This document shows positions 12,868-42,152 of a stretch of DNA of 64,000 nucleotides, piece by piece (position 1 is the first letter of the stretch; each line of letters begins with the position of its first letter). The position numbers were made by a program, and so were the translations under genes. Source of the stretch: Escherichia coli (GTDB lineage Bacteria > Pseudomonadota > Gammaproteobacteria > Enterobacterales > Enterobacteriaceae); the NCBI RefSeq assembly GCF_002854065.1, contig NZ_CP024151.1; one strand, written 5' to 3'. Under the pieces are notes generated by a model. The model was not told where the DNA came from, did not search any database, and was given only the letters and a program-made list of their open reading frames with translations.

Positions 12868-12886
12868 CAGCGTTTATCTTCCTGTA

Positions 12887-21825: not shown

Positions 21826-24647
21826 AATGGCCCCTTCAATCGTTCTTTCTTATCATCCACCATCTGTTTTAACGCATCTTCAGACGGTGTTGGCATTAAT
21901 TTCTGTCGTTTATTTTCTTCATTATATCTGTTGTTTTGTTGAATTTCTTCCTGTTTGTGATTATTTTTTAACTCTGAATATTGTCTGTCTACAATATTTT
22001 CTTCGCCATGAATACTATTCTGAGTATCTCCGATATTCCCTTTATATTCTGTGACCATATTATCAACCTGATGTTTTACATCATTACGGATATTACTGTC
22101 CTGCGTTCTTTGATCAATAATGGCCTGATGCCCCTGATGGTCAGCAATAATATCCTGGCTGCCACCACCCGAAGGTACGCTCTCCATTCCTTTACCAATA
22201 TCCCCACGGGATTCACGCCAGGCATTATCAACACCAGGCTGCACCTGTTCCTGAACAAAAGACCATGCCATCGCCCGACGGCGTTCTGCAATCTCCGGTG
22301 AACTGGTGTTTGTCAGAATAGCTTCGGCATCCTGCGGTGCGTGTTTCATCACATACTGTGCAAACTGTTGCGACAAATCTTCGCTCATCTGCCCACTCAT
22401 GCTTTCAGTACGGGATGCCATTTCAGCATATTCATGGCTGCGGGTCATATTCGTCGTGTACTGGTCGTAACTCTGTTTCGCTGAGTTCAGGGCTGCAGAC
22501 AACTGGTCCACGCGGGAATCGGCATTATTGTCAGTATGGCTGCCGGATTCACTGACTTTGCGACTGGTAAAGTAATCGCTGGCCTCTTTAAAGTCCTTAC
22601 TGGCTTTAGCATCGATATCATGGCGAGCATCATGGGTAGCCCTGCTGCCACTACTTGCTGAATGTGAGTCATCATCCGTTGCATCCAGGCTCCCCTTAAA
22701 TCCACCTCTGATGCCTACCCCACCACCAACACCAAGAATTTTAGGTTTAACCCCCCATTCAGCATGAGCATCAGCATACATTCCACCAGATAGCCTGGTA
22801 CTTGTTGATGCCAGTTCCTGAGTCGCCTGCTCATTACTGATATTATGCGCCTTCGCATAGCTTTCCACTGCACTGCGCATACGGCTGGCCATCATGGAGT
22901 CCTGAGCACTCATCGTGCTGTCAGCACCACCGGTGACAGAATCACTGCTCCCCCGGTTAGAACCAAACTGACTGAGCGTGTTCCAGGCACTGGCAATACT
23001 GCTGCTGAACCCATGCAGGGCACTTTCTGCTCTGTTCGATGCTTCCCGGGCCATTTCCTGTTGTGCCGCCGCAATCTGACGCGTTGCATTGATGCCGACC
23101 GGTAACCGGGACATCGCTCCGCTTGCATCCATCACCATATTACCGTCACGGGTCTGTGTGGCGGTTGCGCCACTGCCGGTCTGGTACATCATCTGACCAA
23201 ACGACGTGGTGCTGTTGGTGCTCCAGCTGAAGCCGTTAACATTCTCCGTCTGCATGTTGCCGTAGGAGTAATTACCGTCAACCACACTGCCTGCTGCACT
23301 GGCGGTCGGGCTGATAGCAGAGGAAGCGAAATGGCTGTACACACTGGAAAATCCTGCCCCGAGCCCCCTGACCATCATCCAGGATAATGGCGGGATCATC
23401 ATGGAAAGATACCCGGCAGTGGAAGCCAGATCGGAGTATTTCAGCTGTATCTGTGAAATTTCCGAGAGCACCACCGGTGCACCATTCTGCTTTGCATAAA
23501 ATGTCATGGCGCTGTTCAGAATGGCGTACAACATTGGCCATGACTGCAACCACATCAGGGCAAACACATAGCCTTTCAGGACGGACAGCGTCAGTTTGTT
23601 GAAGACAGCCGCCAGTACCAGGAGCGGGAAAATACCGATGGCGATCCCCGTCAGGATGGTCTGCGTCATGGGCAGTGTCCGCATCGCCACATGACCGATG
23701 GAGACATGTGCCAGACGTTGCTTCTCCATCGATGATGTGGTGGCCAGATTCACCAGGCTGGCCGAATCACCATTACGTGCGGCATAACTGGTGATCCCCT
23801 CCTTCAGCGCATTGATGGTGACATTCTGGCGGATGATCTGGCTGGCTGATTTACTTGAGCCATAGAAGTAACTGTAACTGTCGCCAATCAGCGTACTGAA
23901 CAACAGGTTCGGATCAGGGCGTCCACCAAATAGCTGCTGGGCATAATAATGCCATGTTTTTCCGCCACTCTGTGTGTCCAGATTCAGCTTGTCTTTCAGC
24001 GAAACCGACGCGTCCTTACAGGTCACGAAATTATTATTGCTGTCATAAACGCCCCGCAGCGGACTGGGGCGGGAAAAAATCAGCGTGTAAGGATCAGCGG
24101 AGGCCATCAGTTCCTCCAGCGTGTATTTGTGGTTCAGGTAAATATCCCCCATCACGCAGTTCTGCACATAATCCTGGAAAAGATTGGCGATTTCCGGATT
24201 ACGGGACAAAAAGTCGGTGCTTTTTGATACCAGTTCTGCGCCAAACAGCATCCCCGTTTTGCTGTAGGTGACACTGTCCGGTTGCGTGAAGATCATCTCG
24301 TAACTGGCCACCATTGCATGCCCGATACGGGTCGTCAGTGAAAGTGGCATCGCCAGTCCGACCGGCACATTATCCACCCGGTGAACTTTGACCAGGTCAC
24401 TGTTATCAATAATCTGCACCGATGTGCGGACATTAACCAGCAGGCTGATAAGCACAAACACGGCCACCCAGCCCAGCAAATCCATCACGTTGTGCCGCTG
24501 TACCCACATTACGGCCACCGCGAGAACAGACAATGTGAGCGCAATTTTTTCAATGGAATCCCACGTCCGGGTCCCCATAAAGGCGGCAATGGCATTCAGG
24601 TTATTCCGCAACCACTCACCACCGGCAATCACATAAACTTCATTCAC
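21822..24647 (-). CDS. traG: TraG mating pair stabilization / pilus assembly
   Basis: 941 aa MNEVYVIAGGEWLRNNLNAIAAFMGTRTW...; GTG start overlapping traH stop. Confidence 0.95.
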   Translation of the reverse strand: MNEVYVIAGGEWLRNNLNAIAAFMGTRTWDSIEKIALTLSVLAVAVMWVQRHNVMDLLGWVAVFVLISLLVNVRTSVQIIDNSDLVKVHRVDNVPVGLAMPLSLTTRIGHAMVASYEMIFTQPDSVTYSKTGMLFGAELVSKSTDFLSRNPEIANLFQDYVQNCVMGDIYLNHKYTLEELMASADPYTLIFSRPSPLRGVYDSNNNFVTCKDASVSLKDKLNLDTQSGGKTWHYYAQQLFGGRPDPNLLFSTLIGDSYSYFYGSSKSASQIIRQNVTINALKEGITSYAARNGDSASLVNLATTSSMEKQRLAHVSIGHVAMRTLPMTQTILTGIAIGIFPLLVLAAVFNKLTLSVLKGYVFALMWLQSWPMLYAILNSAMTFYAKQNGAPVVLSEISQIQLKYSDLASTAGYLSMMIPPLSWMMVRGLGAGFSSVYSHFASSAISPTASAAGSVVDGNYSYGNMQTENVNGFSWSTNSTTSFGQMMYQTGSGATATQTRDGNMVMDASGAMSRLPVGINATRQIAAAQQEMAREASNRAESALHGFSSSIASAWNTLSQFGSNRGSSDSVTGGADSTMSAQDSMMASRMRSAVESYAKAHNISNEQATQELASTSTRLSGGMYADAHAEWGVKPKILGVGGGVGIRGGFKGSLDATDDDSHSASSGSRATHDARHDIDAKASKDFKEASDYFTSRKVSESGSHTDNNADSRVDQLSAALNSAKQSYDQYTTNMTRSHEYAEMASRTESMSGQMSEDLSQQFAQYVMKHAPQDAEAILTNTSSPEIAERRRAMAWSFVQEQVQPGVDNAWRESRGDIGKGMESVPSGGGSQDIIADHQGHQAIIDQRTQDSNIRNDVKHQVDNMVTEYKGNIGDTQNSIHGEENIVDRQYSELKNNHKQEEIQQNNRYNEENKRQKLMPTPSEDALKQMVDDKKERLKGPL

Positions 24648-26020
24648 AGCGTGCTCCCTCCGAAGTGATAGTTGTTCTGGTAACGACTGAGCATGCGGGC
24701 GGAAAGCTGCTGACGCATGTAGCTCATCTGACGATCGACAACCAGCAGCGCATCCTGCTGTACCTGCACCTGTGACTGAAACGCCGCAATCTGCCGGGTG
24801 GCATCATTCATGTTGTCGTTAATATGTTCGATAACTGCTTCGTCATAATTTCCTGTGGCCACCATCGCCCGGGCCTGCTGTATCAGCTCCTGAATGTACT
24901 GCAGCAGGATGTCGTAACCGATATAGTCCGTCAGCTGGTAAATCATACTGTTGGAAACACCGAGCATTTGCGGGTCAACCAGGTATTTGAAGACGGGGAT
25001 GGTGGTACTGGAAATAAAGCCTTTTTCCTTGTCATCCAGAGGCGTGTCACTGACCGCCTTGTTCTGAATGCTGGCCAGAAGTTTAGTAATCTGAGACTTC
25101 AGTGCATTATCCCGGCTGATGGTCACCGGTGTGTCTGCCACCACTTTCAGGCATTTATCAGAATCGTTGCAGTGATAAATTTTTGCTGTGCCGCCTTCCA
25201 TCATGGCCCGGATAATTGAGCGGTCAGTGGTTCTGGCTGATAGCGGTGTGATTTCGCCGTTGGGACCAAACACCAGTGAGCCGGTCAGCGTCATCACAAA
25301 TTCTTTCAGCTCTTTGTTGCCATCAAACATTCTGTTTTTGGAAAGCGCATTCCACATGATGTTGATGTTTTTGGTCACCCGCTCCTTATCCTTGTCGCTG
25401 GCTTTATCCCTGACGCTGTCAGATTTCCCGCCAACGGTACATCCCTGCCGGGAAGCCGCCCAGTCAGCAAAAATATTGCTCTCACCGGCAATGTCCTGAC
25501 AGACTTTCTGCTGGGACACCTGCGTCCGGGGGAAAAGCCCGCCGATAATCCCCTGTGCAGCCTGGCAGGAACTGAGGTTCATACTGTTAATGTCGCTTGC
25601 CATTTTCTGCAGGAAGTCTTTTGCGGTTTTGATTTCCGGCACCGTTGTCTGCAGGGCAAGGTCAAAAAAGTAACCGGCAGCATTGCTCATAATCTGCTTA
25701 ACAAAACGCTGCAGCTGCTCGCCATTAATAAAACTGAACGAACCGAGGTAGGCGTCGATGCCGCCACATCCGGCATTGATATCCGGCAGCGTCATGGAAA
25801 TCAGCTGAACATTTTTGACCTGAGTACGGGCATACAGGGAGCCACCGTAAGCATAACCGGCGGCCTGCCCCTGCCAGACGCCCGGCTGTGTGGTATTGGA
25901 GGCGAAGCCCAGCTTGTTAAAGAACTGATTCATGTCGCTGTTCACATCCGCTGACGCTGCGGGTGTGACCGTCAGTAAAGCAGCACAAAGAACCAGAAGA
26001 GGTTTAATGCGTGGCATCAT
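24644..26020 (-). CDS. traH: TraH pilus assembly protein
   Basis: 458 aa MMPRIKPLLVLCAALLTVTPAASA... Confidence 0.95.
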   Translation of the reverse strand: MMPRIKPLLVLCAALLTVTPAASADVNSDMNQFFNKLGFASNTTQPGVWQGQAAGYAYGGSLYARTQVKNVQLISMTLPDINAGCGGIDAYLGSFSFINGEQLQRFVKQIMSNAAGYFFDLALQTTVPEIKTAKDFLQKMASDINSMNLSSCQAAQGIIGGLFPRTQVSQQKVCQDIAGESNIFADWAASRQGCTVGGKSDSVRDKASDKDKERVTKNINIMWNALSKNRMFDGNKELKEFVMTLTGSLVFGPNGEITPLSARTTDRSIIRAMMEGGTAKIYHCNDSDKCLKVVADTPVTISRDNALKSQITKLLASIQNKAVSDTPLDDKEKGFISSTTIPVFKYLVDPQMLGVSNSMIYQLTDYIGYDILLQYIQELIQQARAMVATGNYDEAVIEHINDNMNDATRQIAAFQSQVQVQQDALLVVDRQMSYMRQQLSARMLSRYQNNYHFGGSTL

Positions 26021-26319
26021 TCTTGCCCTCCCTTAATTTGTTCTCCCGGCGCATACGACATTTCAGCAGGAATATCCTGATATTTCCGTCCAGTCCTGCG
26101 GCTGTAATATATTTCAGACACCGAAATCCATCCCACAATTGCCCCCACAAAAAACACAACAGAAACAGAAAAGGTAAGGCACAGCGAAACGACAATTTCT
26201 ACAGGGCTGGCGGGATAAAAAAGCCCCTGACGGATAAAGGGGATATTCAGGCTGACGATTATTCCCGTCGCGATGCCGGATATTCCGGCAATGAGTAACA
26301 CCACCTGCTTATTTCGCAC
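26017..26319 (-). CDS. trbJ: TrbJ-like small membrane protein (start uncertain: GTG at 26319 or ATG at 26379)
   Basis: ORF between trbB and traH with hydrophobic core VVLLIAGISGIATGIIVSL; only ~290 bp separates trbB and traH so a separate trbF is absent. Confidence 0.45.
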   Translation of the reverse strand: MRNKQVVLLIAGISGIATGIIVSLNIPFIRQGLFYPASPVEIVVSLCLTFSVSVVFFVGAIVGWISVSEIYYSRRTGRKYQDIPAEMSYAPGEQIKGGQE

Positions 26320-26854
26320 CTTTTTTTCCTCCGTACATCTGCAGAACGGTATCCATCCGCGCCATAAAACCGGCGGCATCCGTTGCCCCCTGTAAAAGCG
26401 GTAATGCCTCAAGCGTGTTGACGTTGACCAGGAAGGTGGTCGGTGTGGCCACCGGGATATTCGGGAAGAAGGTCTGCATCACGTCCGGTGGCACCGGTAA
26501 TGCTTCCGGAAAGGCGGTATCCCCCTGACCATCCAGGGTGTAGGGAAAAACGGAAAAGCCGTACTGCTGTGCCAACTGCTTCAGTACCGGGTCAAACTGG
26601 TGACAGTAAGGGCAATGCCCCTGCATAAACAGCACCACCTTCCAGTCGGCCAGGTTAACCTGCCTGCCGTTGCTGAGGCGGAACCAGCGGGGAGCCGGCT
26701 TTTCTGTCCTGGCTGATGTGTCTGCTGCCGGTTGTGCAGGCTGCGCGGCCATGCCCTGCGGATTCCAGAGTCGTTCAATTTCATCCCGGGTGGAGGCCTG
26801 CACGGCAGCGGCTGCCAGCAACAGGGTGAACAACAGTGATTTAATGAGAGACAT
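26309..26854 (-). CDS. trbB: TrbB periplasmic thiol-disulfide isomerase (DsbC-like)
   Basis: 181 aa with signal peptide and CPYC active-site motif. Confidence 0.9.
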   Translation of the reverse strand: MSLIKSLLFTLLLAAAAVQASTRDEIERLWNPQGMAAQPAQPAADTSARTEKPAPRWFRLSNGRQVNLADWKVVLFMQGHCPYCHQFDPVLKQLAQQYGFSVFPYTLDGQGDTAFPEALPVPPDVMQTFFPNIPVATPTTFLVNVNTLEALPLLQGATDAAGFMARMDTVLQMYGGKKGAK

Positions 26855-27125
26855 GTCTGCCCTCCTGCTGCCCTTCCATCATGGCCTGTTGTCTTGCTTC
26901 CAGCGCCTCACGCTCTTCCCGGCTGACACGGGCAATCCATGCATCCAGCACCTGGTATGCGCCGAACAGCACGAGAATGGCCGCAATCAACTCCGCCAGA
27001 AAAAAAGCCATCCAGGGTTTGCTGTAAACAAGACGGGCGACGATATGAAACCAGACACCCAGGGAAAATACCCACATTCCCGTAATATCAAGCCGGGGTA
27101 AAGAGAATCTGCGTTTACTTATCAT
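26841..27125 (-). CDS. traQ: TraQ pilin chaperone
   Basis: 94 aa MISKRRFSLPRLDITGMWVFSLGVWFHIVARLVYSKPWMAFF... Confidence 0.9.
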   Translation of the reverse strand: MISKRRFSLPRLDITGMWVFSLGVWFHIVARLVYSKPWMAFFLAELIAAILVLFGAYQVLDAWIARVSREEREALEARQQAMMEGQQEGRHVSH

Positions 27126-27243
27126 GTTAAACTCCGGTTATTATTTACATGAGAGTATTTATGTCTGTAATATTCGCGTTTGTGTGATATTAATCAGATC
27201 AACCTCATTATTTTGTATGGTTTTTATTACCGTTTTATATGAC

Positions 27244-27591
27244 TTAGCCTGTCATAAGCCCCCTTATAAAAAACCACATCACTCCGGACCATACTGATGA
27301 CAACATAATACAGATAAATATTCTTCTGAACCCGTCGAAGCTCGTAACATTCGGTAATGAGCCAATAACCATTGGAACAACCATTGCTGCGCCCTGATTC
27401 ATAATTGCACCACACAGAAACCAGAGACTGGCAGTCAGCACATATAAACACGCGATATTAATAACAAGGAAAACCAGTGAGCTCAGGAGAAACATTTTCC
27501 TGTCATTACGCTCAGAAAAAAAATAACCGGCAATAATGACAAATATTAACAGAACAACACCTGTAAACAGTTTCAAATAATCTTCACTCAT
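27244..27591 (-). CDS. trbA: TrbA inner-membrane protein
   Basis: 115 aa hydrophobic MSEDYLKLFTGVVLLIFVIIAGYFF... in the conserved position between traQ and traF. Confidence 0.85.
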   Translation of the reverse strand: MSEDYLKLFTGVVLLIFVIIAGYFFSERNDRKMFLLSSLVFLVINIACLYVLTASLWFLCGAIMNQGAAMVVPMVIGSLPNVTSFDGFRRIFICIMLSSVWSGVMWFFIRGLMTG

Positions 27592-27606
27592 AAATCAAAT
27601 CCGCGA

Positions 27607-28350
27607 TTAAAAATTGGGTTTAAAATCTTCAGAAACGTTTAGGAATTGTTTTGCCAGGTCGTCCTGCGAAATAAAGCCGTATGATAACGGGCGAACACTG
27701 CCCTGTTTCGGGTCAACCAGCATCATGGCCGGGAAATATTTCACGCCGAGGCGCTGCGCCTGCCCCTGGTCAGTCCGGGAATCCGGCAACAGCGGATTAA
27801 TCACACCATCCACGGAAACGGGAATAACACTCAGACCATAGGTATCCCTGAAGCCATTAATGACCTGCGCCAGCTGCCCGTCGATGGGGTCCTGCCCCCG
27901 GTAAAAGAACATGATGCCGTAGTGTTCAGCCAGTTTCGCAATGGCCTGTCGCTGCTGCACCTGGTCTGCCGCCAGCTGGTTCCGGACCGTGCCGTTGTAA
28001 TGGCTGTACTGCAGGTTATAGTCCAGTTCGGGATGCGCCAGCATGGATTTTTTGGCGCTCATGGTGAAAAGCCCGGCCTGCTGAGTCCAGTAATTCTGCA
28101 GCCGGAAATATTTCACAAAATTATCCACGCCGGGATACAGAATAGCTTCGTACAGCGCCCGCTTTGTTGCCGTCTGCAGTGCGGCCAGTTTCTGCATAAT
28201 GTCCGGCTCCTGACGGGGGGCTGCAGGTACTGGTTTATTTTCTTTTTCCTTCGGATTTATTTTCTCGTTATACCACTGCCAGCCTGCATCTTTTCCTGAC
28301 GCCGGAAAAATAAAGCAGCAGAGTAACAGTGGCAGTAATGCTTTATTCAT
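27607..28350 (-). CDS. traF: TraF pilus assembly protein (thioredoxin-like fold)
   Basis: From internal ATG: MNKALLPLLLCCFIFPASGKDAGWQWYNEK..., 247 aa as in F. Confidence 0.95.
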   Translation of the reverse strand: MNKALLPLLLCCFIFPASGKDAGWQWYNEKINPKEKENKPVPAAPRQEPDIMQKLAALQTATKRALYEAILYPGVDNFVKYFRLQNYWTQQAGLFTMSAKKSMLAHPELDYNLQYSHYNGTVRNQLAADQVQQRQAIAKLAEHYGIMFFYRGQDPIDGQLAQVINGFRDTYGLSVIPVSVDGVINPLLPDSRTDQGQAQRLGVKYFPAMMLVDPKQGSVRPLSYGFISQDDLAKQFLNVSEDFKPNF

Positions 28351-28603
28351 CTTCATTCCTTTCATCACTTTTTCTTTCATCAGGTTTCTGCAGGTCAGTC
28401 AGGGCAGAAAAACAAAAATACAGAATAAACAGGAGCACACCGGAGTAAAAAATAACGAAAGCAGCAGCAAGTATCTCACCTGCAGTGGTTTCTTTTACCG
28501 TATCCCACGACCAGATAATTACCGGGGAAATGACAATCGCTGTAATCAAAAGCCGGATAAGAAAATCAATAAAACGGTTCGACGTGAATATGACTTTCAT
28601 CAT
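28343..28603 (-). CDS. trbE: TrbE small membrane protein
   Basis: 86 aa MMKVIFTSNRFIDFLIRLLITAIVISPVIIWSW..., overlaps traF start. Confidence 0.8.
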   Translation of the reverse strand: MMKVIFTSNRFIDFLIRLLITAIVISPVIIWSWDTVKETTAGEILAAAFVIFYSGVLLFILYFCFSALTDLQKPDERKSDERNEDE

Positions 28604-28626
28604 TTTCCCCGGTTATTTTCCCTACC

Positions 28627-30435
28627 TTACTGTCCTGCCTGTTTCAGCTGGTCAGCAATCTGCTCTTTCACTTTCTGCGTCAGAACACCACTGTCCGGGA
28701 TTTTCTGGTTATTCATCAGGTCTTCGTAGAAGTTAGTGAAATCCAGTCTGTCGAACTGAATTTTCTGCAGCTCATCAACCGTAATCCCCCGACAGTCAGG
28801 ATGCTTCGCACTGCCAAAACTGATACGCAGCTGTCCGTTGCGCCCCTGCTGCTGGACTATCTGCGCCAGCTTCGAATCAAACTGACAGTAACTGCGTTTT
28901 TTCTCCAGGCAGACACCCAGCACTTTCTTCGAACAGAACTCTCCGACACTGACGGTCAGTTTGTTTGATTTTGCTTTAGCCAGGGCTTTTTCATCACTGC
29001 TGCATTTGGCCAGCCCGATATCCTGTCCCCAGCCGCTGTCCTTACAGCAGTTGCTGTATCCGGCTGCAGCCTTCTTACAAAATTTCGCCTGACCGGTGAA
29101 AGCACGGACATCCACCCCGTTCAGCGCCGCAACATCCTTACCTGCTGCGGCCAGTGCCGCCAGCTGAGAAACGGCTTCGGCAAAATCATTACTCTTCCCG
29201 CTCTGAGCCTTATCGCATTCGCCATCGAGACAGAAGACGTCTCCCCCACAGACCATCATTTTCCCGGATGTTTTTGACTCACAGGAGTACGTGGCATATT
29301 CATGCAGACAGGCACCTTCTTCGGAGTAAAAGGCGCACTGGTGTGACACCAGGGTACAGGCAGGATTGTCGGTGTAGGTCTGACAGGTTCCCTTGTCTGC
29401 TGACTGTGTGACATACGTGTCCCGGTATGCCCAGCAGCTCTGGTACATGCTGTATGACTGACCGTCTTTCACCAGCGTCCTGTTCCCGCCAGCCTCCGTA
29501 CATTCTGTTTTTGTCAGTTTCCCCAGCTCCTTGCTGAACGGGCAGCTTTCAGACCAGACAACATACGGGGTGTACGAGGCTTTTTTTACCCTGACAACCA
29601 GACGCAGCTTCATTGCCGTATGACGTCTGAATTTTGTATTCCCGACCCGGACGGGGTGAGATGACGTAAAAGCCACACCGGCAGTCAGTGTTTTCTGTAC
29701 TGGTGTAAATGAGGCATCTGCTGAGTATTTGGCATTCCAGCTCAGTGGGGTTCCCAGTACTGTAATTGTCATAGGTACACTCTTCTGCAGGTAAGTACGA
29801 CTCCAGCTGTAATGCGCATCGACAATTTCACCGGTAACGGGAGAGGTAATGGAGACAACATACTGACCATTCACTTCACGTGCAGGTAGCTGACTCATTT
29901 CATACTCCAGCGTCCGGGTTTCCCATGTGGTACTCCCCTGCAGCTCCATACGGGCAGTTCGTGTGCAGTACTGCTCCACCTGTAAATCCCGCTCACAGGA
30001 GTAATTCGTGTATTCACTCCGGCTAATCTCCTGCGCACTGCACTGCTGCCCGGTGTTTCCCACAATGCTGTCAGCCCGGTTCACCACATCCCTGCCGGTC
30101 TGGATAAACGGTGCATCCGGTGAAAGAATGTCTTTCGGCTTGTTCATGAATGACTCTGTGATGGTTTTTCCGGTTTCACCGGTCGCCCATTCCGTGGTGC
30201 CGTCATTTTTCAGGCCGCCATCCCCGCCGGCAGTCACGCCACCGTAGTATTTTGTCTCGTCCGGATTCGCGTTATAGCCGGGGATACTCTCCTGTGGCTT
30301 AAAGCCCTGAATACTGCTGCTTCCCTGTCCTTTGATCTGGTGAGCAAAATCAGAGCCGGCCCGGTAATCACTGTTGCTGTCAGCCTGTGCCATGCCGGCA
30401 ACCAGAGCCAGTATCAGAGGTAAAATACGTTTCAT
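28627..30435 (-). CDS. traN: TraN outer-membrane mating pair stabilization protein
   Basis: 602 aa Cys-rich, MKRILPLILALVAGMAQADSNSDYRAGSDFAHQ... Confidence 0.95.
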   Translation of the reverse strand: MKRILPLILALVAGMAQADSNSDYRAGSDFAHQIKGQGSSSIQGFKPQESIPGYNANPDETKYYGGVTAGGDGGLKNDGTTEWATGETGKTITESFMNKPKDILSPDAPFIQTGRDVVNRADSIVGNTGQQCSAQEISRSEYTNYSCERDLQVEQYCTRTARMELQGSTTWETRTLEYEMSQLPAREVNGQYVVSITSPVTGEIVDAHYSWSRTYLQKSVPMTITVLGTPLSWNAKYSADASFTPVQKTLTAGVAFTSSHPVRVGNTKFRRHTAMKLRLVVRVKKASYTPYVVWSESCPFSKELGKLTKTECTEAGGNRTLVKDGQSYSMYQSCWAYRDTYVTQSADKGTCQTYTDNPACTLVSHQCAFYSEEGACLHEYATYSCESKTSGKMMVCGGDVFCLDGECDKAQSGKSNDFAEAVSQLAALAAAGKDVAALNGVDVRAFTGQAKFCKKAAAGYSNCCKDSGWGQDIGLAKCSSDEKALAKAKSNKLTVSVGEFCSKKVLGVCLEKKRSYCQFDSKLAQIVQQQGRNGQLRISFGSAKHPDCRGITVDELQKIQFDRLDFTNFYEDLMNNQKIPDSGVLTQKVKEQIADQLKQAGQ

Positions 30436-31070
30436 TTCCCGGAATCTCCTTTCCCTGCCAGTAAATCATGAGCCACCTGCCGGCAGTCACCCGTGGCGGC
30501 CACTTTCTCCAGCGCCTGGCCGACCCGCAGGTTTCCCCGGATGATGTCGTATCCCTGACTGCAGAACACCACCAGTGCCGGTACACTGCGAATGCCGTAC
30601 TGTGAAAACAGCGTCGGGTCGATCTGAACACCATCAGTCGCGCCGTCTTTCACCAGGGACAGTACGGCTTCAGCGGTGGTCTTCAGGTCATTGTTCACCA
30701 TGCCCCGCAGTGTGGCGGGTATACCGTAGTGCCGGGTTTCGCCCAGCATTCGTTTCAGCCCCTCTTCGGGAATGGAAAACGACACAAAATACAGGGCACC
30801 CTGCCGGGGTTTCCCGTCCTGCGAAGCCTGCTGTTTACGAACCAGCTCATCCAGGAAATGGTTATCTGAACGCTGAAGGGGGTTTTCCAGCACCTGCTTC
30901 TCCGCCCAGGCTTTCAGCTGATGGTCAGGTTTTTCACGCAGTTGTCTGCTTAAATTTTCCTGCTGCTTCAGGAACTGGCGGTTTTCAGGAGTGTTCACGT
31001 TTTCTGACGCCATAACCGCCCCGTTCAGCATCATCAGCAGTGCTGCCAGAGATTTCATACTCAGCTTCAT
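30432..31070 (-). CDS. trbC: TrbC pilus assembly protein
   Basis: From second Met: MKLSMKSLAALLMMLNGAVMASENVNTPENRQF..., 212 aa. Confidence 0.9.
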   Translation of the reverse strand: MKLSMKSLAALLMMLNGAVMASENVNTPENRQFLKQQENLSRQLREKPDHQLKAWAEKQVLENPLQRSDNHFLDELVRKQQASQDGKPRQGALYFVSFSIPEEGLKRMLGETRHYGIPATLRGMVNNDLKTTAEAVLSLVKDGATDGVQIDPTLFSQYGIRSVPALVVFCSQGYDIIRGNLRVGQALEKVAATGDCRQVAHDLLAGKGDSGK

Positions 31071-31078
31071 CATTCACC

Positions 31079-32071
31079 TCACAGGAAGACACAGTTACGT
31101 TTACGCCACATCAGGTAGCCGAAGTTTTTCTTTGTATTGGGCGGATTTTTCCCGGTTTCCCAGCGGGTCACACTGCGCCCGAACGGGTGGCACTGTCCGC
31201 TGTCCGGGTACATATTCACCATCTGATAACGCCAGCGTTCTTTGGGCAGGATTGGGGACGGATATTCATTACAGACGGCGTTATTTTTCCCGATGGTTTC
31301 CATAATCATGCCCTGACGGTGCAGCTTGAACGCCATGCGTTCACTGACCAGCAGGGAGGACTGCAACGGACTGGACTCATTACTCACCCAGCCATTGAAC
31401 GGGTACATACTGCCCTGCGAACCGGCACACCAGAACAGAACATCGAGAGGCATATTAAAGGCGCTGGCAATGGCATCTGCTGCACAGGCCCCCTGTGCTA
31501 TCGGATTGGCAAAGATGACAGCTTCCGGATTGAGAATGGTGGTCAGGCTGCTGTCCGTCCAGGTGGGGTCAATTTCAGAAAGATAAGCGATATCCAGGTC
31601 ACCACCTTCCAGACAGCCCAGCGATGTGATGATGTTAAGCCAGTACGTCAGCGGGTATTTGTACCAGTGAACGTGATAGAACGCCCCGTTCACCTGCTTC
31701 TCATCTTTTTTCGCCGTTCCCTGTGCCGTTTTACCAAAAGCCGGCAGGCTGAAGCCCAGGTTAACCATGCATCCCGGTGACCGGGTGACGTCCGTCAGCG
31801 CCATCGGCTCCCAGTAACCAATGGCCAGCCCGATACGCCTGAACAGCGGCGGCGGTGCCGGACAAATCTGAATGGGCATCGACGGGTTCGCCGTGTCGGG
31901 GACCTTACCCTGACTGACTTTGATACTGCCCAGCGAGAGCGGGAAAATACAGCTCCAGCAGATATCCGTGATCGGGTTTACAAAACGCCCCTCACAGGCA
32001 GAATCCGCAGACGCTGCAGGGACATGACCGGCGAGAAGGAATAACATCAGCAGCCACAGGCTTCGCTTCAT
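31079..32071 (-). CDS. traU: TraU pilus assembly / DNA transfer protein
   Basis: 330 aa MKRSLWLLMLFLLAGHVPAASADSACEGRFVNPITDICWSCIFPL... Confidence 0.95.
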   Translation of the reverse strand: MKRSLWLLMLFLLAGHVPAASADSACEGRFVNPITDICWSCIFPLSLGSIKVSQGKVPDTANPSMPIQICPAPPPLFRRIGLAIGYWEPMALTDVTRSPGCMVNLGFSLPAFGKTAQGTAKKDEKQVNGAFYHVHWYKYPLTYWLNIITSLGCLEGGDLDIAYLSEIDPTWTDSSLTTILNPEAVIFANPIAQGACAADAIASAFNMPLDVLFWCAGSQGSMYPFNGWVSNESSPLQSSLLVSERMAFKLHRQGMIMETIGKNNAVCNEYPSPILPKERWRYQMVNMYPDSGQCHPFGRSVTRWETGKNPPNTKKNFGYLMWRKRNCVFL

Positions 32072-32700
32072 TTTCTGCCCTCCTCTGCCGGAATAAATTC
32101 CACCTTCAGGAAGCGATCGCCGGGAACGGCGCTCACCCGTGCCGGGACCTGATCAATGCCGAGGCGCTGGCAGAGCACACCGTTCTGGTCAAAGTAAACA
32201 CGGCTGTCCAGAGACTTCTGCATCTCCGGGATACTGCCCTGCACGAGGATAATTTTGCTCTCCAGTGTGGGCGGCGTCTGGCGTTTCATCCAGGCCACCT
32301 GCGCCGGATCATCGCCATTGATGAAATACAGCGTCTGGTTAAAAGGAACATACTGCAGCGGATTCATCACTTCACCCTGACGGGCAAACACCCGCCCTTC
32401 GTTATCCCGGATATCCGCAGCCAGTCTGACGGACGGGTCAAACAACCGGCTACCGTATTTCTCCGTGCGTCCGATACCGGGCACGGCAGGGGGCCGCAGA
32501 CTGTTGCGGATCACCCGCTCCTTAAAGGCATCCATTTTCCGGCCCATCTCACCGGACTGCTCCAGTGCCGTCAGGCGCTGCATGATCACCGTCAGCATGT
32601 CCGGCTCCTTTACCGGCCACAGATCGCCCCAGGTACCAAGATCGGCGGCGGCCACACTCTGCCCCCATATCAGCAGGGCAATCAGCCCCCGGCATCTCAT
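32068..32700 (-). CDS. traW: TraW pilus assembly protein
   Basis: From internal ATG: MRCRGLIALLIWGQSVAAADLGTWGDLWPVKEPDMLTV..., 210 aa; ATG directly after trbI stop. Confidence 0.9.
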   Translation of the reverse strand: MRCRGLIALLIWGQSVAAADLGTWGDLWPVKEPDMLTVIMQRLTALEQSGEMGRKMDAFKERVIRNSLRPPAVPGIGRTEKYGSRLFDPSVRLAADIRDNEGRVFARQGEVMNPLQYVPFNQTLYFINGDDPAQVAWMKRQTPPTLESKIILVQGSIPEMQKSLDSRVYFDQNGVLCQRLGIDQVPARVSAVPGDRFLKVEFIPAEEGRK

Positions 32701-33083
32701 GGTTCCGCCCTCATTCGCCGGGCAATATCCTGCTGGATTTCCCGGGTGATATCCGGAGCCCCCTGTACCACGGCAGGCGACACCAGAATGACCGCGTGGT
32801 GTTTCTGCTGCCACGCCTGCAGGCTGGCTTCCAGTGCCGTGTTAAAACGCGCTGAAAGGGCTTTTGACTGTGCTTCTGACAGTTGTTTCTGACTGGCGCT
32901 GTCAAAAAACGCATCCACGGTCTGTTTCATGTTGAAGGCGGCAGTCACCGGTGCGTTCAGTCTGACAATGCCGTAACTGATGGCTGCGTTCAGTAACACC
33001 ATTGCCAGGTATCCCGGCACCGTCCACCACCAGTGGCTGCGTCGAGGGGCTGTAACGTCAGTCGTTTTTTGCGTTGTGGTCAT
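32697..33083 (-). CDS. trbI: TrbI inner-membrane protein
   Basis: 128 aa MTTTQKTTDVTAPRRSHWWWTVPGYLAMVLLNAAISYGIVRL... Confidence 0.9.
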   Translation of the reverse strand: MTTTQKTTDVTAPRRSHWWWTVPGYLAMVLLNAAISYGIVRLNAPVTAAFNMKQTVDAFFDSASQKQLSEAQSKALSARFNTALEASLQAWQQKHHAVILVSPAVVQGAPDITREIQQDIARRMRAEP

Positions 33084-35707
33084 GCAACACTCCTGTATTT
33101 CTCATGCTCTTCAAGCCAGGCTTCCAGCGAAGCCATCTCCGGCCCTGATTTCTTCCACGCCAGCTGCCACACCGCCTCATGAATACTCAGCCCCTCTTTA
33201 CGCTTCTGCTGTACAAACTCAAAGTCCGGGCCGTCAGAGCTGTACATGGCACGGCTTAACGGGTCCACAAACAGACGGTGCCAGGAGGAATGGTTTTCCA
33301 CCTGCAGCAGGAAGGAACTGAACCACTGGTCTTTGGCCGCACCAAACTTGCCAATCATGTCGCGCTGCAGTGGCAGGAACTGGTCCGGATACAGCTGGTT
33401 GTATTTCGCGAACTCCTTCGCACTCTGTTTGAGGATAATTTTGTAGGAGGAGTTACCCCATGCCGCACGGGCAGCACTGGATGCCTTGTCAGAGTCAAAG
33501 TCGACGATGTTCTGTGTGATGGTGATATAGGCACCGGTATGACGGCGGGCGGTACGGTAACCTTTCTCAATAAACTCACCGACCTTGTGATTTTTGAAGT
33601 CCAGCAGACGCCAGCCTTCATCAATAACGTTCAGTTTTTTGAGATTACGCGGCGTGCGGTACATCCTGTTCTCGATGTAGATAATCAGGGAGAACATCAC
33701 CGCAACCAGCAGTGACGGACGGTCTTCCAGTCCGCCCAGCTCCAGCACCACCATTTTTGCGTCATCCCGCAGGGACGGCTCATCAGAGTTAAAATACTGG
33801 CCGTAAGTGCCGTTGGCAGTGTACTGGTCAAGCAGCACAATCATTTCGTCCAGACGGCTGCGGATAGTCGGTGACTCGGCATACTGCTCGCTGTCACTGG
33901 CGTTTTTCAGGAAATCCACCACGTCATCAATACGTGCCCTGTTCTCTTTGGTCCGCCATGATGCCCTGACGGCCTGCAGCAGCAGACCTTCATGCACTTC
34001 ATCCAGGTTACCGTTGGGGCTGGCCATCACCGACAGCTGGTCGCGGACACGCTCCGCTGACTGGTCAATATCGGTGATGTTCGCAAACGGGTTAAAGCGC
34101 AGGGTTTCACCGTCCAGATATACGCCCCCCATGTTCTCACACAGGGACTTGTAGCCATCCCCCATGTCGAACACCACGGCAAAGCCCCCGGAGTCCAGCA
34201 CGCTGCGGATAAGTGGCTGTATCAGCCCGGTTTTACCGGCCCCGGAGGTGCCACAGACCGCCATGTTGTAGTTGGTGTTATTCATCCCCCGGAAGAAAAT
34301 ATCGATAAACGCCAGCTGGTTACGGTAGGTGGGTGCCAGCAGACCTGCCGGTGTCAGGGGGTTATCCGCCACTAACGGCATCAGGTTGGCCACATTAAAG
34401 CTCTCTGCGCGCTGTACCACTCCGGCCTCTTTCAGCTGTTTAAACAACCCTTTCCCGGCCATAAAGGGCAGACAGGTCAGGAAATTGCGCATGTGGTTAA
34501 AGCGCGGTGAAATCAGCTCAAAACCGTTTTTACGGAAGCTGTTCAGGATGTCCTGCTCCACTTCCAGCGCCGTTTCATTATTGTCCTTGCAGAAGGCTGT
34601 GATGTTGAGGAAGTAGGACACCACGGAGGACTGACCGGAGCCCAGCCGCTGACGCAGTTCCCCCCACTCCTTCGCCTCTTTCTCCACGGACGGAAACCAT
34701 TTGGCATAGGAGGTCTTCGACTTTTTCTCCAGGTCCATGTACTTCAGGTTGGCTTCGCTGTGGGTTTTCACCTGGTCTTCCACCACCAGAGTCAGCGTCA
34801 GGATGAACGGACAGGAGATGGACAGTTCCGGGTTCAGCAGGTTGCTGTAGTTGTCAGCCATGTTCCACAGGAAGGCGATTTCCGGGTTACGGGCCAGATG
34901 GAAATTCAGGATGCGGGCCGTGCTGTTCCTGCCGTTCTCACGCAGGCCCAGCGTCAGGTAATCAGCCCGGACTTTCAGATCAAAACTGTCCTCCACACAC
35001 TGATAATTCAGATCAGAATACGGGTCCAGCTGACGTCTTTTCGGGTACAGGGAGTCCGGGTTATGGTTAATCATCTCCCCGACAATATCGATAAAGGCCT
35101 GTGCATCCACCGTCTGTGTGGTGATACTGGCCCCCTGTAACGACGCCCGGATGATTTTCACCAGGTTTTCCATTTCCAGAATGTCGGCCCGGCTTTTTTT
35201 CTTCGAAGGAGAACAGTACGAGATAAACACCCGGTAATGGCGCAGGGTCAGGGGCAGATTCATCCCCTCCGGCAGCGGAAACTGTGTCGCTGCCGCTTTC
35301 ATATAATAGGCCCGGGTAATGGCGTTAAACCGTTCAGCCTGTTCACCTGACCAGGAGAACTCACGCAGCCCGTATTCAATCCTGTCACCAACCAGCTGAC
35401 TGGACATCAGATGGATACACAACGGAATACCGCGCGGCAGTTTGGTGCGCAGCATGTGATCGAGGGCCTCCACAATGGACTCATTCGCCCCATTGATGGG
35501 GATGGCTTCCAGCATAAAGCCCATCGTGGTGTCATTCATGAACAGACCGGATTCCTGGTTGTAATCACGGTACGGCAGCAGACGGCTGAACTGCGGGAAG
35601 CTCATTTCGCCCAGAACTTCATTGGCCTTTGCGGATTCGTCAGGCAGTTTCAGTGCTGTGACGAGGGAGTTAACCGCCTGAGTGACGGCCTCAAGTGGGT
35701 TATTCAC
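33080..35707 (-). CDS. traC: TraC (VirB4-like) pilus assembly ATPase
   Basis: 875 aa MNNPLEAVTQAVNSLVTALKLPDE..., Walker A GTSGAGKTG. Confidence 0.97.
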   Translation of the reverse strand: MNNPLEAVTQAVNSLVTALKLPDESAKANEVLGEMSFPQFSRLLPYRDYNQESGLFMNDTTMGFMLEAIPINGANESIVEALDHMLRTKLPRGIPLCIHLMSSQLVGDRIEYGLREFSWSGEQAERFNAITRAYYMKAAATQFPLPEGMNLPLTLRHYRVFISYCSPSKKKSRADILEMENLVKIIRASLQGASITTQTVDAQAFIDIVGEMINHNPDSLYPKRRQLDPYSDLNYQCVEDSFDLKVRADYLTLGLRENGRNSTARILNFHLARNPEIAFLWNMADNYSNLLNPELSISCPFILTLTLVVEDQVKTHSEANLKYMDLEKKSKTSYAKWFPSVEKEAKEWGELRQRLGSGQSSVVSYFLNITAFCKDNNETALEVEQDILNSFRKNGFELISPRFNHMRNFLTCLPFMAGKGLFKQLKEAGVVQRAESFNVANLMPLVADNPLTPAGLLAPTYRNQLAFIDIFFRGMNNTNYNMAVCGTSGAGKTGLIQPLIRSVLDSGGFAVVFDMGDGYKSLCENMGGVYLDGETLRFNPFANITDIDQSAERVRDQLSVMASPNGNLDEVHEGLLLQAVRASWRTKENRARIDDVVDFLKNASDSEQYAESPTIRSRLDEMIVLLDQYTANGTYGQYFNSDEPSLRDDAKMVVLELGGLEDRPSLLVAVMFSLIIYIENRMYRTPRNLKKLNVIDEGWRLLDFKNHKVGEFIEKGYRTARRHTGAYITITQNIVDFDSDKASSAARAAWGNSSYKIILKQSAKEFAKYNQLYPDQFLPLQRDMIGKFGAAKDQWFSSFLLQVENHSSWHRLFVDPLSRAMYSSDGPDFEFVQQKRKEGLSIHEAVWQLAWKKSGPEMASLEAWLEEHEKYRSVA

Positions 35708-35865
35708 ATGAATTCCTTAGTTGAAAATAAAGCGAGAAATGCGGTAGCCATGAAGGGAATACCTGTAATTAACGCGCCATTTCCCGGCGCATATACAAAG
35801 ATTTCTGTTTTCTGAATATCCACTCATGTTCATCCGGAATTAAATCACTATGTTCTGCGACTGAC

Positions 35866-36087
35866 TTATGCATAATGTTTTCTCTGTCTTTCCTGATACG
35901 CCTGACATTCAACGCACAACGTCACACCGGGAAATATTTTCCGCCGGGCTTCCGGAATAGGATTTCCGCATGCTTCACAGAGATAAACAGGAATACCATG
36001 AGCATTTATTTTCTGGCGTATCCGGTTTATTCCTGTCATGGTCAGTTGTTCTGTCACTGAATATGCTTCATCGGCTTCATCACTCAC
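35866..36087 (-). CDS. traR: TraR (DksA/TraR-family zinc finger)
   Basis: 73 aa MSDEADEAYSVTEQLTMTGINRIRQKINAHGIPVYLCEACGNPIPEARRK... with C4 zinc finger. Confidence 0.85.
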   Translation of the reverse strand: MSDEADEAYSVTEQLTMTGINRIRQKINAHGIPVYLCEACGNPIPEARRKIFPGVTLCVECQAYQERQRKHYA

Positions 36088-36221
36088 GGAATATTCCTCC
36101 CGACATGTTCTGACACGCTACCGCCCATCCCTTTTCACGCACAGGGCACTCGTTTTACAGGCAGATTTTGAATACAGAAAGCCCGCCGGCATTGCCGGCT
36201 GATATACAACTTCAGGGCCAG

Positions 36222-36737
36222 TTAATTAATACGTGGTTTTCCCCACGCAGACGGTTTAATAACAAAAAACACGCTGGATGGCTGATGATAAACATCCTGG
36301 TTATCAATATAAGGCGCTATCCATAATGCTGCCGTCTGCTCACCCGTTCTTAGCGGACGAGGAGGTGTTACCGGCGTAACTGAACTGACCGGAACAACCG
36401 TTTTCACTTCCCGGGCAGCGGTAAACAGCGGGCGAGGTGCCAGCAGTTTCTGCTCCGGATGTGCTGTCACCGCAGGTCTGCTGCCGGACGGAGTGGTCGC
36501 GGTGACGGTCTGCACCGGCATTGTCCGGAAGTTCCCTTCAGCCAGGCGCGGCAGTGATGCCGCAACCGGCTTTGCTTCTGAGGACTGCTCCAGTTTTTTG
36601 GCCTTCTCATTGGCCTGCTCCATCGTCATACAGGTATCTGATGTGGTGGCGTTACACTCAAATTCCGTATTAGTTCCGGCACAGCCAGAAAGTAATAACG
36701 TCCCCAGCAGAGGAATAAATAAAGAAATCTTTTTCAT
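36222..36737 (-). CDS. traV: TraV outer-membrane lipoprotein
   Basis: 171 aa MKKISLFIPLLGTLLLSGCAGTNTEFECNATTSD... with lipobox. Confidence 0.9.
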   Translation of the reverse strand: MKKISLFIPLLGTLLLSGCAGTNTEFECNATTSDTCMTMEQANEKAKKLEQSSEAKPVAASLPRLAEGNFRTMPVQTVTATTPSGSRPAVTAHPEQKLLAPRPLFTAAREVKTVVPVSSVTPVTPPRPLRTGEQTAALWIAPYIDNQDVYHQPSSVFFVIKPSAWGKPRIN

Positions 36738-37054
36738 TACCCTTCTCCTTTTTTATTATTCTCCACAACAGCAGAAATTAACTCTGCTGTCAGATTTGTT
36801 TTCCCTGCACAGGGTTGTCCGAAGACTACTGTATTTCCCGGAGAAGAAAATAAGCTCATCGACATACCCTTCTTCATCACACCGACAGCTGCCATATTAA
36901 AATTGTGCGGCAATGATTCAGAACCGAATTCCTTCAGTGCAGGAAGTACGATTCTTGTGGTGCAGTTACTGAGAACAGCATTCATAAAATCATCTGATAC
37001 GCTTTTATCCGGTACAGAGCGTGCAGTAATAATATTAATATTACGCATGTTCAT
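36737..37054 (-). CDS. trbG: TrbD/TrbG-like ORF (single frame here; start uncertain)
   Basis: ORF between traP and traV in the position of trbD and trbG; several in-frame ATGs near the traP stop; P-loop-like GQPCAGKT. Confidence 0.4.
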   Translation of the reverse strand: MNMRNINIITARSVPDKSVSDDFMNAVLSNCTTRIVLPALKEFGSESLPHNFNMAAVGVMKKGMSMSLFSSPGNTVVFGQPCAGKTNLTAELISAVVENNKKGEG

Positions 37055-37628
37055 TTTTATCTCCGTTGCTTCTGTTTGTTCGGTCATCAGGGAAATAAAC
37101 ATGGCATTTCCTGATTTTTTCCGGCAGGGAAGCATCTTCCGTAAGAACTTCCTTCAGATGTTCATCTGCAGTTGCGACCCGGACACATTTCATTTTTCCG
37201 GGTCGCATCGGATATTTTCCGGAGATCACCGCCAGCGAGACATACATCAGTGCCAGCGTTGCCCATAATGCGGTGAACAGTTGCATCAGAAACTGGTCAG
37301 TCTCCCTGGCATATTCTGCAGCATCCCCCCGGCGAAAACCGCACGTTACAGACGGAGGCATCGCTAAATCGGAACCAAAACTGTTCGAGCAGTATCGGAC
37401 TGGATACAGCCCGGCTGGCGTTCTGCCCCTTACAAACTCGATCTCCTGAACCAGCAATTTCCCCGGTGTGGTGTTGTCCTTCCATAAAACCAGTAACGCC
37501 AGCAGAGCCATTGTGGCCAGCGGCAGAATGACGGCGTATTTCAGACACCAGAACAACCAACACAGGCCCTGGGCAACAACATACCGGGTGGCATGGCATA
37601 TCTGACGGAGTGACATATTATTTGCCAT
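37041..37628 (-). CDS. traP: TraP inner-membrane protein
   Basis: 195 aa MANNMSLRQICHATRYVVAQGLCWLFWCLKYAVILPL... Confidence 0.85.
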   Translation of the reverse strand: MANNMSLRQICHATRYVVAQGLCWLFWCLKYAVILPLATMALLALLVLWKDNTTPGKLLVQEIEFVRGRTPAGLYPVRYCSNSFGSDLAMPPSVTCGFRRGDAAEYARETDQFLMQLFTALWATLALMYVSLAVISGKYPMRPGKMKCVRVATADEHLKEVLTEDASLPEKIRKCHVYFPDDRTNRSNGDKNEHA

Positions 37629-41394: not shown

Positions 41395-42081
41395 TTACTT
41401 AACGCTATAAAATTCACGAATTATATTTAATAGCAAATCTATTTTCCCTTTATAGATACATGACACTCTGAATAAATCAAAGTGTTCAAAAAATTCTTTT
41501 ATTTTCCGTTTAACTGGTTTAATTCGATCCTCAGATGCTCTGTCTGTAATACCCAATTCTCTGGCAATTGTTGCATGACCAACACCCAGCATATAAAAAG
41601 AGAAAACAAGCAATGTCCCGGGGGAAAGATCATTCCATATCGTTAATTTATCAGAAGTATTTGTATTACTTCCACTCTGACTTAACGCAAAAAATGGATA
41701 ATCAGGAAACGGATTAATTTGCCATAAAACAACAGATTCGTCATTATAAAAAGAAACATTCTCCATCCTTATCTGATAGATTTCGCCATGAAAATTAAAA
41801 CGACGACAAAATGCAGAGCCATGTCCAAGAGCCTGGCATTCCAATTCAAGTGATGAAAGAAAAATTTCAACCTGCAGACGTATATAACTCTCTCCGGATA
41901 AGGGTTTATCTTCTCTGGAAAAGAGTTCAATAAAAGCCCCATTGGCATAAAGGATTTTCCGGTTTTTGTTACGGACACAAACCGGAACGGGAGAATTTCT
42001 GTAGATATTCTGAACGTTAAGGATGTACTTATTTACAGATTGACTGTTAAGTGGCCTTTCTCTACGATCCAGCGCACACAT
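41395..42081 (-). CDS. traJ: TraJ transcriptional activator of the tra operon
   Basis: Position between traY and traM; start taken at internal ATG ([13 protein letters not shown]...) preceded by GGAGG; 228 aa. Confidence 0.8.
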
Positions 42082-42152
42082 AGGAACCTCCGTTAAGGAT
42101 TCTATGGACAGTCGATGCAGGGAGTTCAGACCTCCCTGCATCGGCGATTTTC
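42072..42152 (+). ncRNA. finP: FinP antisense RNA (approximate bounds)
   Basis: Antisense to traJ leader/RBS; hairpin GATGCAGGGAG-N6-CTCCCTGCATC followed by GCGATTTT on the plus strand. Confidence 0.5.

Follow-up and report, generated by a model that had tools for sequence, protein, structure and literature searches.

Organisation of the tra region

The 64-kb stretch of DNA analysed here (the window) carries a tra operon on its minus strand. According to the ORF map, the annotation of identical or near-identical records and blastn blocks collinear with F (NC_002483.1), the gene order is traM-J-Y-A-L-E-K-B-P-...-V-R-C-trbI-W-U-trbC-N-trbE-F-trbA-Q-trbB-...-H-G-S-T-D-I-X-finO. This is the order found in F from traM to finO, the compact traR–traC and traU–trbC junctions are also those of F, and the conserved single-operon synteny places the operon among the F-like systems (MPF_F, MOBF12 group A). 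When ORF lengths in the window are compared with those of F, every tra gene classed as essential for transfer and for making F pili (the list is taken from PMC5102898) is present and full length. The ORFs of F-like length are traC (875 aa), traN (602 aa), traU (330 aa), traH (458 aa), traG (941 aa), traB (475 aa), traK (242 aa), traE (188 aa), traV (171 aa), traD (720 aa) and traI (1756 aa), while traA, traL, traW, trbC, traF and traQ are present by annotation. The FinOP/TraJ regulatory module is there too: the Rfam models of FinP (91 bits) and of the traJ 5′ UTR (117.8 bits) match at 42075–42184, finO is an ORF of 186 aa at 11506–12066, and a PAS-domain TraJ is annotated.

The part of the operon considered below, 26017–37135 (11,119 bp), is 100% identical to pPM4-5-103k (NZ_CP096835.1), CP101797.1 and NZ_CP116170.1, which are all annotated plasmids and have the same annotated gene set over these 11,119 bp. 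Beyond roughly 18.5–41 kb of the window, pPM4-5-103k is out of register, which indicates that the replicon of the window is related to this plasmid but not identical to it. At least 3,180 records cover at least 80% of the region, and only 22 are at least 99% identical across the full 11 kb. Against F, blastn gives a single block of 9,555 bp from traV to trbA, with 98.0% identity, and the alignment is interrupted at three sites only: between trbB and traH, between trbA and traQ, and at trbD. Since these indel differences are read straight from the alignments, chance is not a consideration.

The genes around these sites, all on the minus strand, are intact trbB (26309–26854, 181 aa) and traQ (26841–27125, 94 aa), both identified from ORF and annotation, trbA (27244–27591, 115 aa; NCBIfam NF010266, 222.8 bits, and annotation), trbE (28343–28600, 85 aa; NCBIfam NF010271, 157.6 bits, and Pfam TrbE), and trbC (30432–31070) and trbI (32697–33083), which are ORFs annotated in an identical record. 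An Rfam scan finds no known RNA inside 26017–37135, and a scan of 25,900–27,700 finds no promoter or terminator above shuffle expectation.

The trbB–traH interval

The trbB frame stops at 26309; the start of traH is at 26020, although RefSeq (PGAP) places it at 26017. The two genes are separated by 288 bp, whereas the gap measures 637 bp in F and, in R100/NR1 (NC_002134.1), about 636 bp; the first-pass annotation was right in giving this interval about 290 bp and room for one small ORF. A single ORF, which we call trbJ′ (26017–26379, minus strand), fills the space, and there is no separate trbF. Its translation consists of TrbJ residues 1–97 followed by a tail of 23 aa encoded by a 3′ remnant of trbF; the product has 120 aa (363 bp) if translation begins at the annotated PGAP ATG, and 100 aa with the classical GTG (26319). 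NZ_CP096835.1, an identical record, calls this ORF trbJ, and NCBIfam NF010265 assigns it to the TrbJ family (240.5 bits for a cutoff of 164), residues 1–114 aligning with positions 1–114 of the 115 of the profile. Despite this match, residues 98–120 are non-native relative to TrbJ.

Alignments, length arithmetic and the sequence itself place the deletion junction between 26090 and 26089 (minus strand). The deletion is 345 bp long (346 bp relative to F) and took the 16 C-terminal codons of trbJ together with trbF, of which only the equivalent of the last 22 codons is left. The junction reads CGCAGGACTGG up to the breakpoint and ACGGAAATATC after it, which creates the 363-bp trbJ′ ORF ending on the traH start and identifies the trbF-deletion allele of the pSFO157/pEC_B24 type. 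In the alignment, the left flank CGCAGGACTGG is that of the trbJ allele of pCys-1 and pRHB04-C01_2. The alignments reveal no obvious microhomology at the trbJ–trbF junction. A deletion mediated by the repeat CGGAAATATC, which occurs at both ends in F, was considered and rejected: the junction is upstream of the left copy, and the allele is pCys-1-like.

The trbF 3′ remnant (26017–26089, minus strand) matches the 3′ end of F trbF in blastn with 94.5% identity over 73 bp. It holds the Shine–Dalgarno sequence of traH, AAGGGAGGG, at 26026–26034, and the TGA/ATG (ATGA) stop/start overlap is intact at 26015–26020. As the ribosome-binding site and this overlap are untouched, traH should be translated as usual, and a polar effect is not to be expected. 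The tail of trbJ′ cannot be taken as a genuine TrbF C-terminus, since this holds only in comparison with the frameshifted allele of F, in which an F-specific extra T shifts the 3′ frame of trbF; in the alleles of R100, pEC22-OXA-1 and pRHB04 the native TrbF tail is in a different frame from that of trbJ′. The trbF gene is also decayed in pCys-1, by a nonsense codon.

The trbA–traQ spacer and the trbD site

The spacer between trbA and traQ (27126–27243) is 118 bp long. Its alignment with R100 is that of an identical, empty artA-insert site, and the 278-bp insert that bears artA in F is missing at 27198/27199; this insert has no match in the window. The only plus-strand ORF of at least 40 aa around trbA–traQ is found at 27124–27297 and encodes 57 aa, versus 104 aa for ArtA. 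The absence of an artA-sized antisense ORF had been noticed from the sequence, and is real, but it had been looked for opposite trbA, while artA of F lies within the trbA–traQ spacer.

Between traP and traV, the window has one ORF at 36737–37135, where F has trbD (63 aa) and trbG (83 aa). Read from the upstream ATG at 37135, the open frame has 132 aa; the annotated gene is a trbD of 105 aa (36737–37054, minus strand). It is of the R100 type according to the R100 alignment and to NCBIfam NF010284, the curated 106-aa form of TrbD (226.3 bits, cutoff 176); Pfam DUF2689 covers the N-terminal 54 aa of the product. The initial description of this region as a single open frame was correct. The ORF is not a merged trbD/trbG: a fusion is excluded, since BLASTP detects no similarity to TrbG of F and the DNA alignment reveals an alternative cassette. 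From the alignment and the boundaries of the blastn blocks, the variable 3′ cassette of trbD spans 36752–36869 (minus strand). It is of the R100 type and about 120 bp long here, while F has at this site an unrelated sequence of about 260 bp (L002, 6439–6696) with the end of the short trbD and trbG. We also considered that the R100-type TrbD could be the remnant of a P-loop ATPase, and rejected this idea, as the matches are all sub-threshold (TraC Walker A, E = 0.25; RecA and KTI12 P-loops). Three-way alignments assign the window to the R100-type state at two sites: at the trbD site, where one trbD ORF of about 106 aa lies next to traV, and at the trbA–traQ site, with its 118-bp spacer.

Comparison with F, R100 and related plasmids

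The first-pass annotation had concluded that the accessory gene content is unlike that of F. This is true for trbF, artA and trbG, and also for the spacer between traD and traI, outside the interval that this annotation covered, which carries vapBC in F (classically trbH) and is absent from the window. F thus has trbG with the short trbD, the 278-bp artA insert and intact trbJ and trbF, all of which the window lacks. According to tblastn and blastn, homologues of F TrbG, ArtA, TrbF and the traD–traI spacer are found nowhere else in the 64 kb, where the sole matches to F accessory sequences are 73 bp from the 3′ end of trbF and the final 14 codons of artA. The accessory set of the F reference (trbG, artA, trbF and the trbH/vapBC spacer) is therefore not that of the window.

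R100 matches the window at two of the three sites, with its single 106-aa trbD directly upstream of traV and its artA-less 118-bp spacer, and its traD also abuts traI. Unlike the window, R100 has intact trbJ and trbF, it carries four additional ORFs in the traR–traC interval and another in the traU–trbC interval, and its traN diverges in the central part. Alignment to F and R100 had been proposed as a check, with a shared organisation in reference plasmids as the refuting outcome, and such sharing is largely what is seen: R100 shares the artA-less spacer and the single trbD. The trbF-less arrangement, in which trbJ′ abuts traH, exists in neither F nor R100 but is found in pSFO157 (NC_009602.1) and pEC_B24 (NC_014382.1), which share the deletion junction and the 363-bp trbJ′, and have no artA. 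In the junction interval, the window has an A at 26078 where both have a G, and pEC_B24 additionally differs at 26062 (C versus A). Unlike the window, pSFO157 has the F-type trbD and trbG and the vapBC spacer, and pEC_B24 has an F-type trbG according to the paper that describes it, so that its combination is not identical to that of the window either.

Frequency of the variants

The 5′ part of trbJ is present in about 3,565 PLSDB records, and 779 of those with this trbJ (about 22%) have the identical trbF-deletion junction. These were counted at a coverage of at least 80% with a 66-bp probe that the trbJ–trbF alleles of F and R100 are unable to seed. In a spread sample of PLSDB the junction is found in 12 of 60 records. 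Its hosts are E. coli, Salmonella, Shigella, Klebsiella and Enterobacter, and MOB-suite types 779 of the 785 junction-match records as conjugative. Among 5,426 complete E. coli genomes, 2,631 contain trbJ and 689 contain the junction (698 records). For the other sites, PLSDB has about 870 records with artA, about 2,280 (2,282) with the F-type trbG and about 1,240 (1,238) with the 3′ part of the R100-type trbD.

In the literature, the non-essential tra and trb genes are less frequent across F-like plasmids, only some of which have the specific set of trbA, trbG and artA (PMC5102898). A plasmid with no trbF and no artA was described in 2010, pEC_B24, and yet it "is easily transferred by conjugation" (PMC2887853).

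Interpretation

The phenomenon is already known, and there is nothing unusual in the reduced accessory set. The window very probably contains a complete, ordinary F-like (MPF_F/MOBF) tra operon with indel variants that result from plasmid mosaicism, and it differs from F at three sites, all in genes that are not essential for transfer. The presence of these arrangements in R100, in pSFO157 and pEC_B24, and in other sequenced F-like plasmids by the hundreds to thousands points to ordinary mosaicism. The trbB–traH site would have a derived state, produced by the 345-bp deletion in a trbJ–trbF allele like those of pCys-1 and pRHB04, in frame for trbJ. The two other sites are in states shared with R100, one with no artA insert and the other with an alternative trbD 3′ cassette replacing the short trbD and the trbG of F. 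The three states combine differently from one plasmid to another, pSFO157 being an example, as would be the outcome of homologous recombination between co-resident F-like plasmids. An insertion in trbJ of F reportedly reduced transfer somewhat; if so, the altered TrbJ C-terminus could act quantitatively. Transfer proficiency is probably unaffected, judging from the full-length essential genes, the typing of 779 of 785 junction records as conjugative, the transfer of pEC_B24 and the classical genetics of F cited in PMC5102898.

The frequency of the deletion allele and its spread over these hosts could lead one to think that it is under selection, either with the tail of trbJ′ being a neo-functional protein, or with the loss of trbF being adaptive (for transfer rate, host range, or phage and exclusion), the proportion of about 22% then reflecting selection rather than hitch-hiking. 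Indeed, the trbJ frame is not interrupted before the TGA overlapping the start of traH, and in pEC_B24 and pSFO157 the substitutions have left the ORF uninterrupted. However, the tail overlaps the translation-initiation region of traH, which is constrained anyway; it is out of the native TrbF frame in all non-F alleles, so that no TrbF domain is kept; decay of trbF by other routes, in pCys-1 and in F, fits a dispensable gene; and the success of the carrier plasmid lineages accounts for the frequency alone. We consider selection of this kind quite unlikely. It would also be unlikely that the deletion is a single ancient event and that the rewired C-terminus of TrbJ, the loss of TrbF, or both measurably change mating, in which case the allele may be selected and spread by recombination over F-like backbones that otherwise differ, the frameshifted trbF of F being part of a repeated decay of the gene.

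Three accessory genes and the trbH/vapBC spacer are missing relative to F, as they would be if the operon were undergoing a private degeneration towards inactivation. This is very unlikely, considering that each state is common to hundreds to thousands of plasmids, with nearly all of the junction records typed as conjugative, that the essential tra genes are all full length, and that two of the three states are also those of R100, which is a transfer-proficient reference. As for an assembly or sequencing artefact that would have shortened the trbB–traH interval, nothing suggests it beyond the difference from F, and it is scarcely credible when the identical junction occurs in 779 independent PLSDB records and, for complete assemblies of E. 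coli, in 698 records, including pEC_B24, which dates from 2010.

The result matters little beyond confirming F as an atypical reference for the accessory content of tra regions. Its artA, trbG, trbH/vapBC spacer and trbF reading frame are not the sole states, and often not the majority ones, so that small-gene differences from F are not to be read as unusual or as a loss of function; in particular, the absence of trbF, artA or trbG is no predictor of a transfer defect. Regarding the use of annotations, "trbJ" designates here an ORF made of TrbJ plus a remnant, and "TrbD" exists in several cassette forms.

Organization of the tra operon

An entire F-like tra operon, encoded on the minus strand, occupies ~11.5–42.7 kb of the window, starting with traM (~42.3–42.7 kb) and ending with finO (11,506–12,066). 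The interval considered here (26,017–37,135, minus strand, 11,119 bp) is bounded by the stop codon of the small ORF that precedes traH and by the furthest upstream ATG in the trbD frame. Three annotated plasmids of E. coli (pPM4-5-103k, NZ_CP096835.1; CP101797.1; NZ_CP116170.1) match it at 100% identity, and PLSDB has at least 3,180 records with a coverage of 80% or more. The register with pPM4-5-103k is kept only at ~18.5–41 kb and is lost in 1–18,500 and 41,000–64,000 through indels, one of which changes the length of traD by 9 bp. The source replicon is therefore a relative and not pPM4-5-103k itself.

The first-pass annotation described a reduced set of accessory trb genes, based on the trbB–traH gap, the lack of an artA-sized antisense ORF opposite trbA and the single open frame in the trbD/trbG region. 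Each of the three sites was aligned with F (NC_002483.1) and R100 (NC_002134.1), the first one also by an eight-way alignment. All three statements hold with respect to F, which aligns with the window as one 9,555-bp block (98.0% identity) broken only at the three sites. On the other hand, by the test set with that annotation (refutation if reference plasmids have the same organization), two of the three features are the organization of R100, which is collinear with the window at these two sites (R100 has extra traR–traC and traU–trbC inserts that the window lacks). The third feature, the trbF-less trbB–traH region, is not that of R100, but it is found in pSFO157 (NC_009602.1), pEC_B24 (NC_014382.1) and hundreds of other plasmids. 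The original observation is accurate, and the variation is well sampled, already published and already known.

The trbB–traH region

The gap of about 290 bp that had been noticed between trbB and traH measures 288 bp, versus 637 bp in F (trbB stop at 26,309, traH start at 26,020 or 26,017). Three-way and eight-way alignments reveal a clean deletion whose junction is at 26,090/26,089. Its size is 345 bp compared to R100, pEC22-OXA-1, pCys-1 (NZ_CP041299.1) and pRHB04-C01_2, and 346 bp compared to F, since F alone has a run of seven T where the others have six. What is lost is the 3' end of trbJ (16 codons) and nearly the whole of trbF, of which only the last ~70 bp are left. The intact trbJ–trbF alleles are diverse whereas the junction is essentially invariant, a polarity that favours a derived deletion over an insertion in the other plasmids. 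The left flank of the junction, CGCAGGACTGG, is specific to the trbJ allele of pCys-1 and pRHB04, while the alignment shows the right flank to be more F-like.

Because 345 is divisible by three, the trbJ frame remains open. The resulting ORF, trbJ' (26,017–26,379), encodes residues 1–97 of TrbJ followed by RKYQDIPAEMSYAPGEQIKGGQE, a tail that is the same as the C-terminus of F TrbF. We considered that trbJ' may be a TrbJ–TrbF chimera, and rejected this reading: the native TrbF tail of R100, pEC22-OXA-1 and pRHB04-C01_2 (...LKRRMRRE..LREG.N.A.H*) is read in a different frame, so that the predicted product is best described as TrbJ with a substituted C-terminus. It passes the NCBIfam TrbJ model (240.5 bits, cutoff 164). 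RefSeq/NCBIfam (NF010265) names this minus-strand gene "P-type conjugative transfer protein TrbJ"; this looks like a name collision with the VirB5-like TrbJ of IncP/Ti systems, since the F-type TrbJ is a small two-helix membrane protein with no Pfam match. The trbF remnant keeps the traH Shine-Dalgarno sequence AAGGGAGGG (26,026–26,034) and the TGA/ATG overlap.

The trbF gene also decays elsewhere. The seven-T run of F (17,952–17,958 of our F sequence L002, NC_002483.1 ~83,951; six T in R100, pEC22-OXA-1, pCys-1 and pRHB04-C01_2) puts the C-terminal ~32 residues of F TrbF out of frame with respect to the tail conserved in other alleles; trbF ends exactly on the traH ATG in F, and 14 nt inside traH in the other alleles. 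In pCys-1 (~330–760 of sequence L008), the unannotated trbF has an in-frame TAA (…KTDP*LNN…), an independent inactivation of the gene. This nonsense codon and the frameshifted 3' end in F support the view that trbF is dispensable.

The artA and trbD sites

The artA gene of F (104 aa, in the trbA–traQ spacer on the anti-tra strand) is nearly entirely encoded by a 278-bp segment. This segment is absent from the window. It is also absent from R100, which shares with the window an identical 118-bp trbA–traQ spacer. The only antisense ORF there (57 aa, 27,124–27,297, plus strand) lies across the spacer and includes the final 14 artA codons (27,198–27,239), in DNA common to the window and F. This ORF is probably a non-coding leftover.

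The single trbD/trbG frame proved to be one trbD ORF of 105 aa, versus a short trbD plus trbG in F. R100 has the same single ORF (106 aa), and the window protein fits the curated 106-aa TrbD model NF010284 (226.3 bits, cutoff 176). In F, the shared part is limited to the first ~60 codons (DUF2689), after which an unrelated cassette supplies the end of the short trbD and trbG; no similarity between the window TrbD and TrbG was found. The C-terminus of the R100-type TrbD (36,737–36,830, minus strand) carries a Walker-A-like motif, GQPCAGKT, and then a helix (NLTAELISAVV). This motif matches the Walker A box of TraC weakly (E = 0.25) and the P-loops of RecA and KTI12 below threshold. Either a relic fragment of an NTPase gene or chance resemblance could explain it.

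Downstream, traD (18,157–20,319) directly adjoins traI (12,887–18,157) at 18,157, like in R100, whereas in F and pSFO157 the two genes are separated by ~700 bp, annotated as opposite-strand vapBC and classically called trbH. The vapBC of F is therefore also missing. TrbG, ArtA, TrbF and the F traD–traI spacer have no other match in the whole 64 kb.

Distribution among F-like plasmids

A 66-bp junction probe, built so that the trbJ–trbF alleles of F and R100 cannot seed a match, hits 785 PLSDB records (779 at ≥80% coverage) and 689 of 5,426 complete E. coli genomes; the conserved 5' part of trbJ hits 3,565 and 2,631, respectively. Among 60 evenly spaced matches to the whole trbB–traH interval, 12 were of the short form, in agreement with the probe count. 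In PLSDB the junction is found in plasmids of E. coli, Salmonella, Shigella, Klebsiella and Enterobacter, with conjugative typing for 779 of the 785 records. PLSDB also contains ~870 records with the F artA insert, ~2,282 with F-type trbG and ~1,238 with the 3' part of R100-type trbD. From these counts, the absence of artA is the majority state, while roughly a third of these plasmids have R100-type trbD and about a fifth to a quarter have the trbF deletion.

The states of the sites assort independently. Like the window, pSFO157 carries the trbF deletion and lacks artA, but it has F-type trbD and trbG and the vapBC spacer; pEC_B24 likewise carries the deletion and lacks artA, but has trbG. This is the mosaic expected from recombination among F-like plasmids. 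Among 256 MOBF12 plasmids, genes non-essential for F transfer are rarer, trbH is present in only 8%, and trbA, trbG and artA occur together as a set that is specific to some of these plasmids ("Five shades of F", PMC5102898).

Functional consequences

We infer that all three differences are (nearly) neutral polymorphisms and that transfer is unimpaired. The essential tra ORFs are all F-like in length on an ORF map against F, the deletion does not reach the traH initiation region, and pEC_B24 lacks trbF and artA yet "is easily transferred by conjugation" (PMC2887853). Terminator-like and promoter-like signals around the junctions do not exceed shuffle expectation. With FinP, the traJ 5' UTR and a 186-aa finO ORF present, the operon is expected to act as a normal F-like transfer system under FinOP regulation. 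The population data contradict both a degenerative state of the gene set that is private to this plasmid and an assembly artefact. The frequency of the deletion allele is the sole positive evidence that TrbJ' might be adaptive or neo-functional.

Rfam matches at gathering level correspond to FinP and the traJ 5' UTR (42,075–42,184); others are at 15,232–15,308, 23,843–23,928, 9592–9680, 10,460–10,618, 46,181–46,357, 11,080–11,263 and 53,580–53,682, the families being AS-traI, AS-traG, CopA, two sok antitoxin RNAs, AS-pc02 and AS-pc01. The window scan gave none inside 26,017–37,135. Last, two long plus-strand ORFs, of 246 aa opposite traU (31,040–31,780) and 226 aa opposite traB (37,720–38,400), are most likely shadows of the coding strand.
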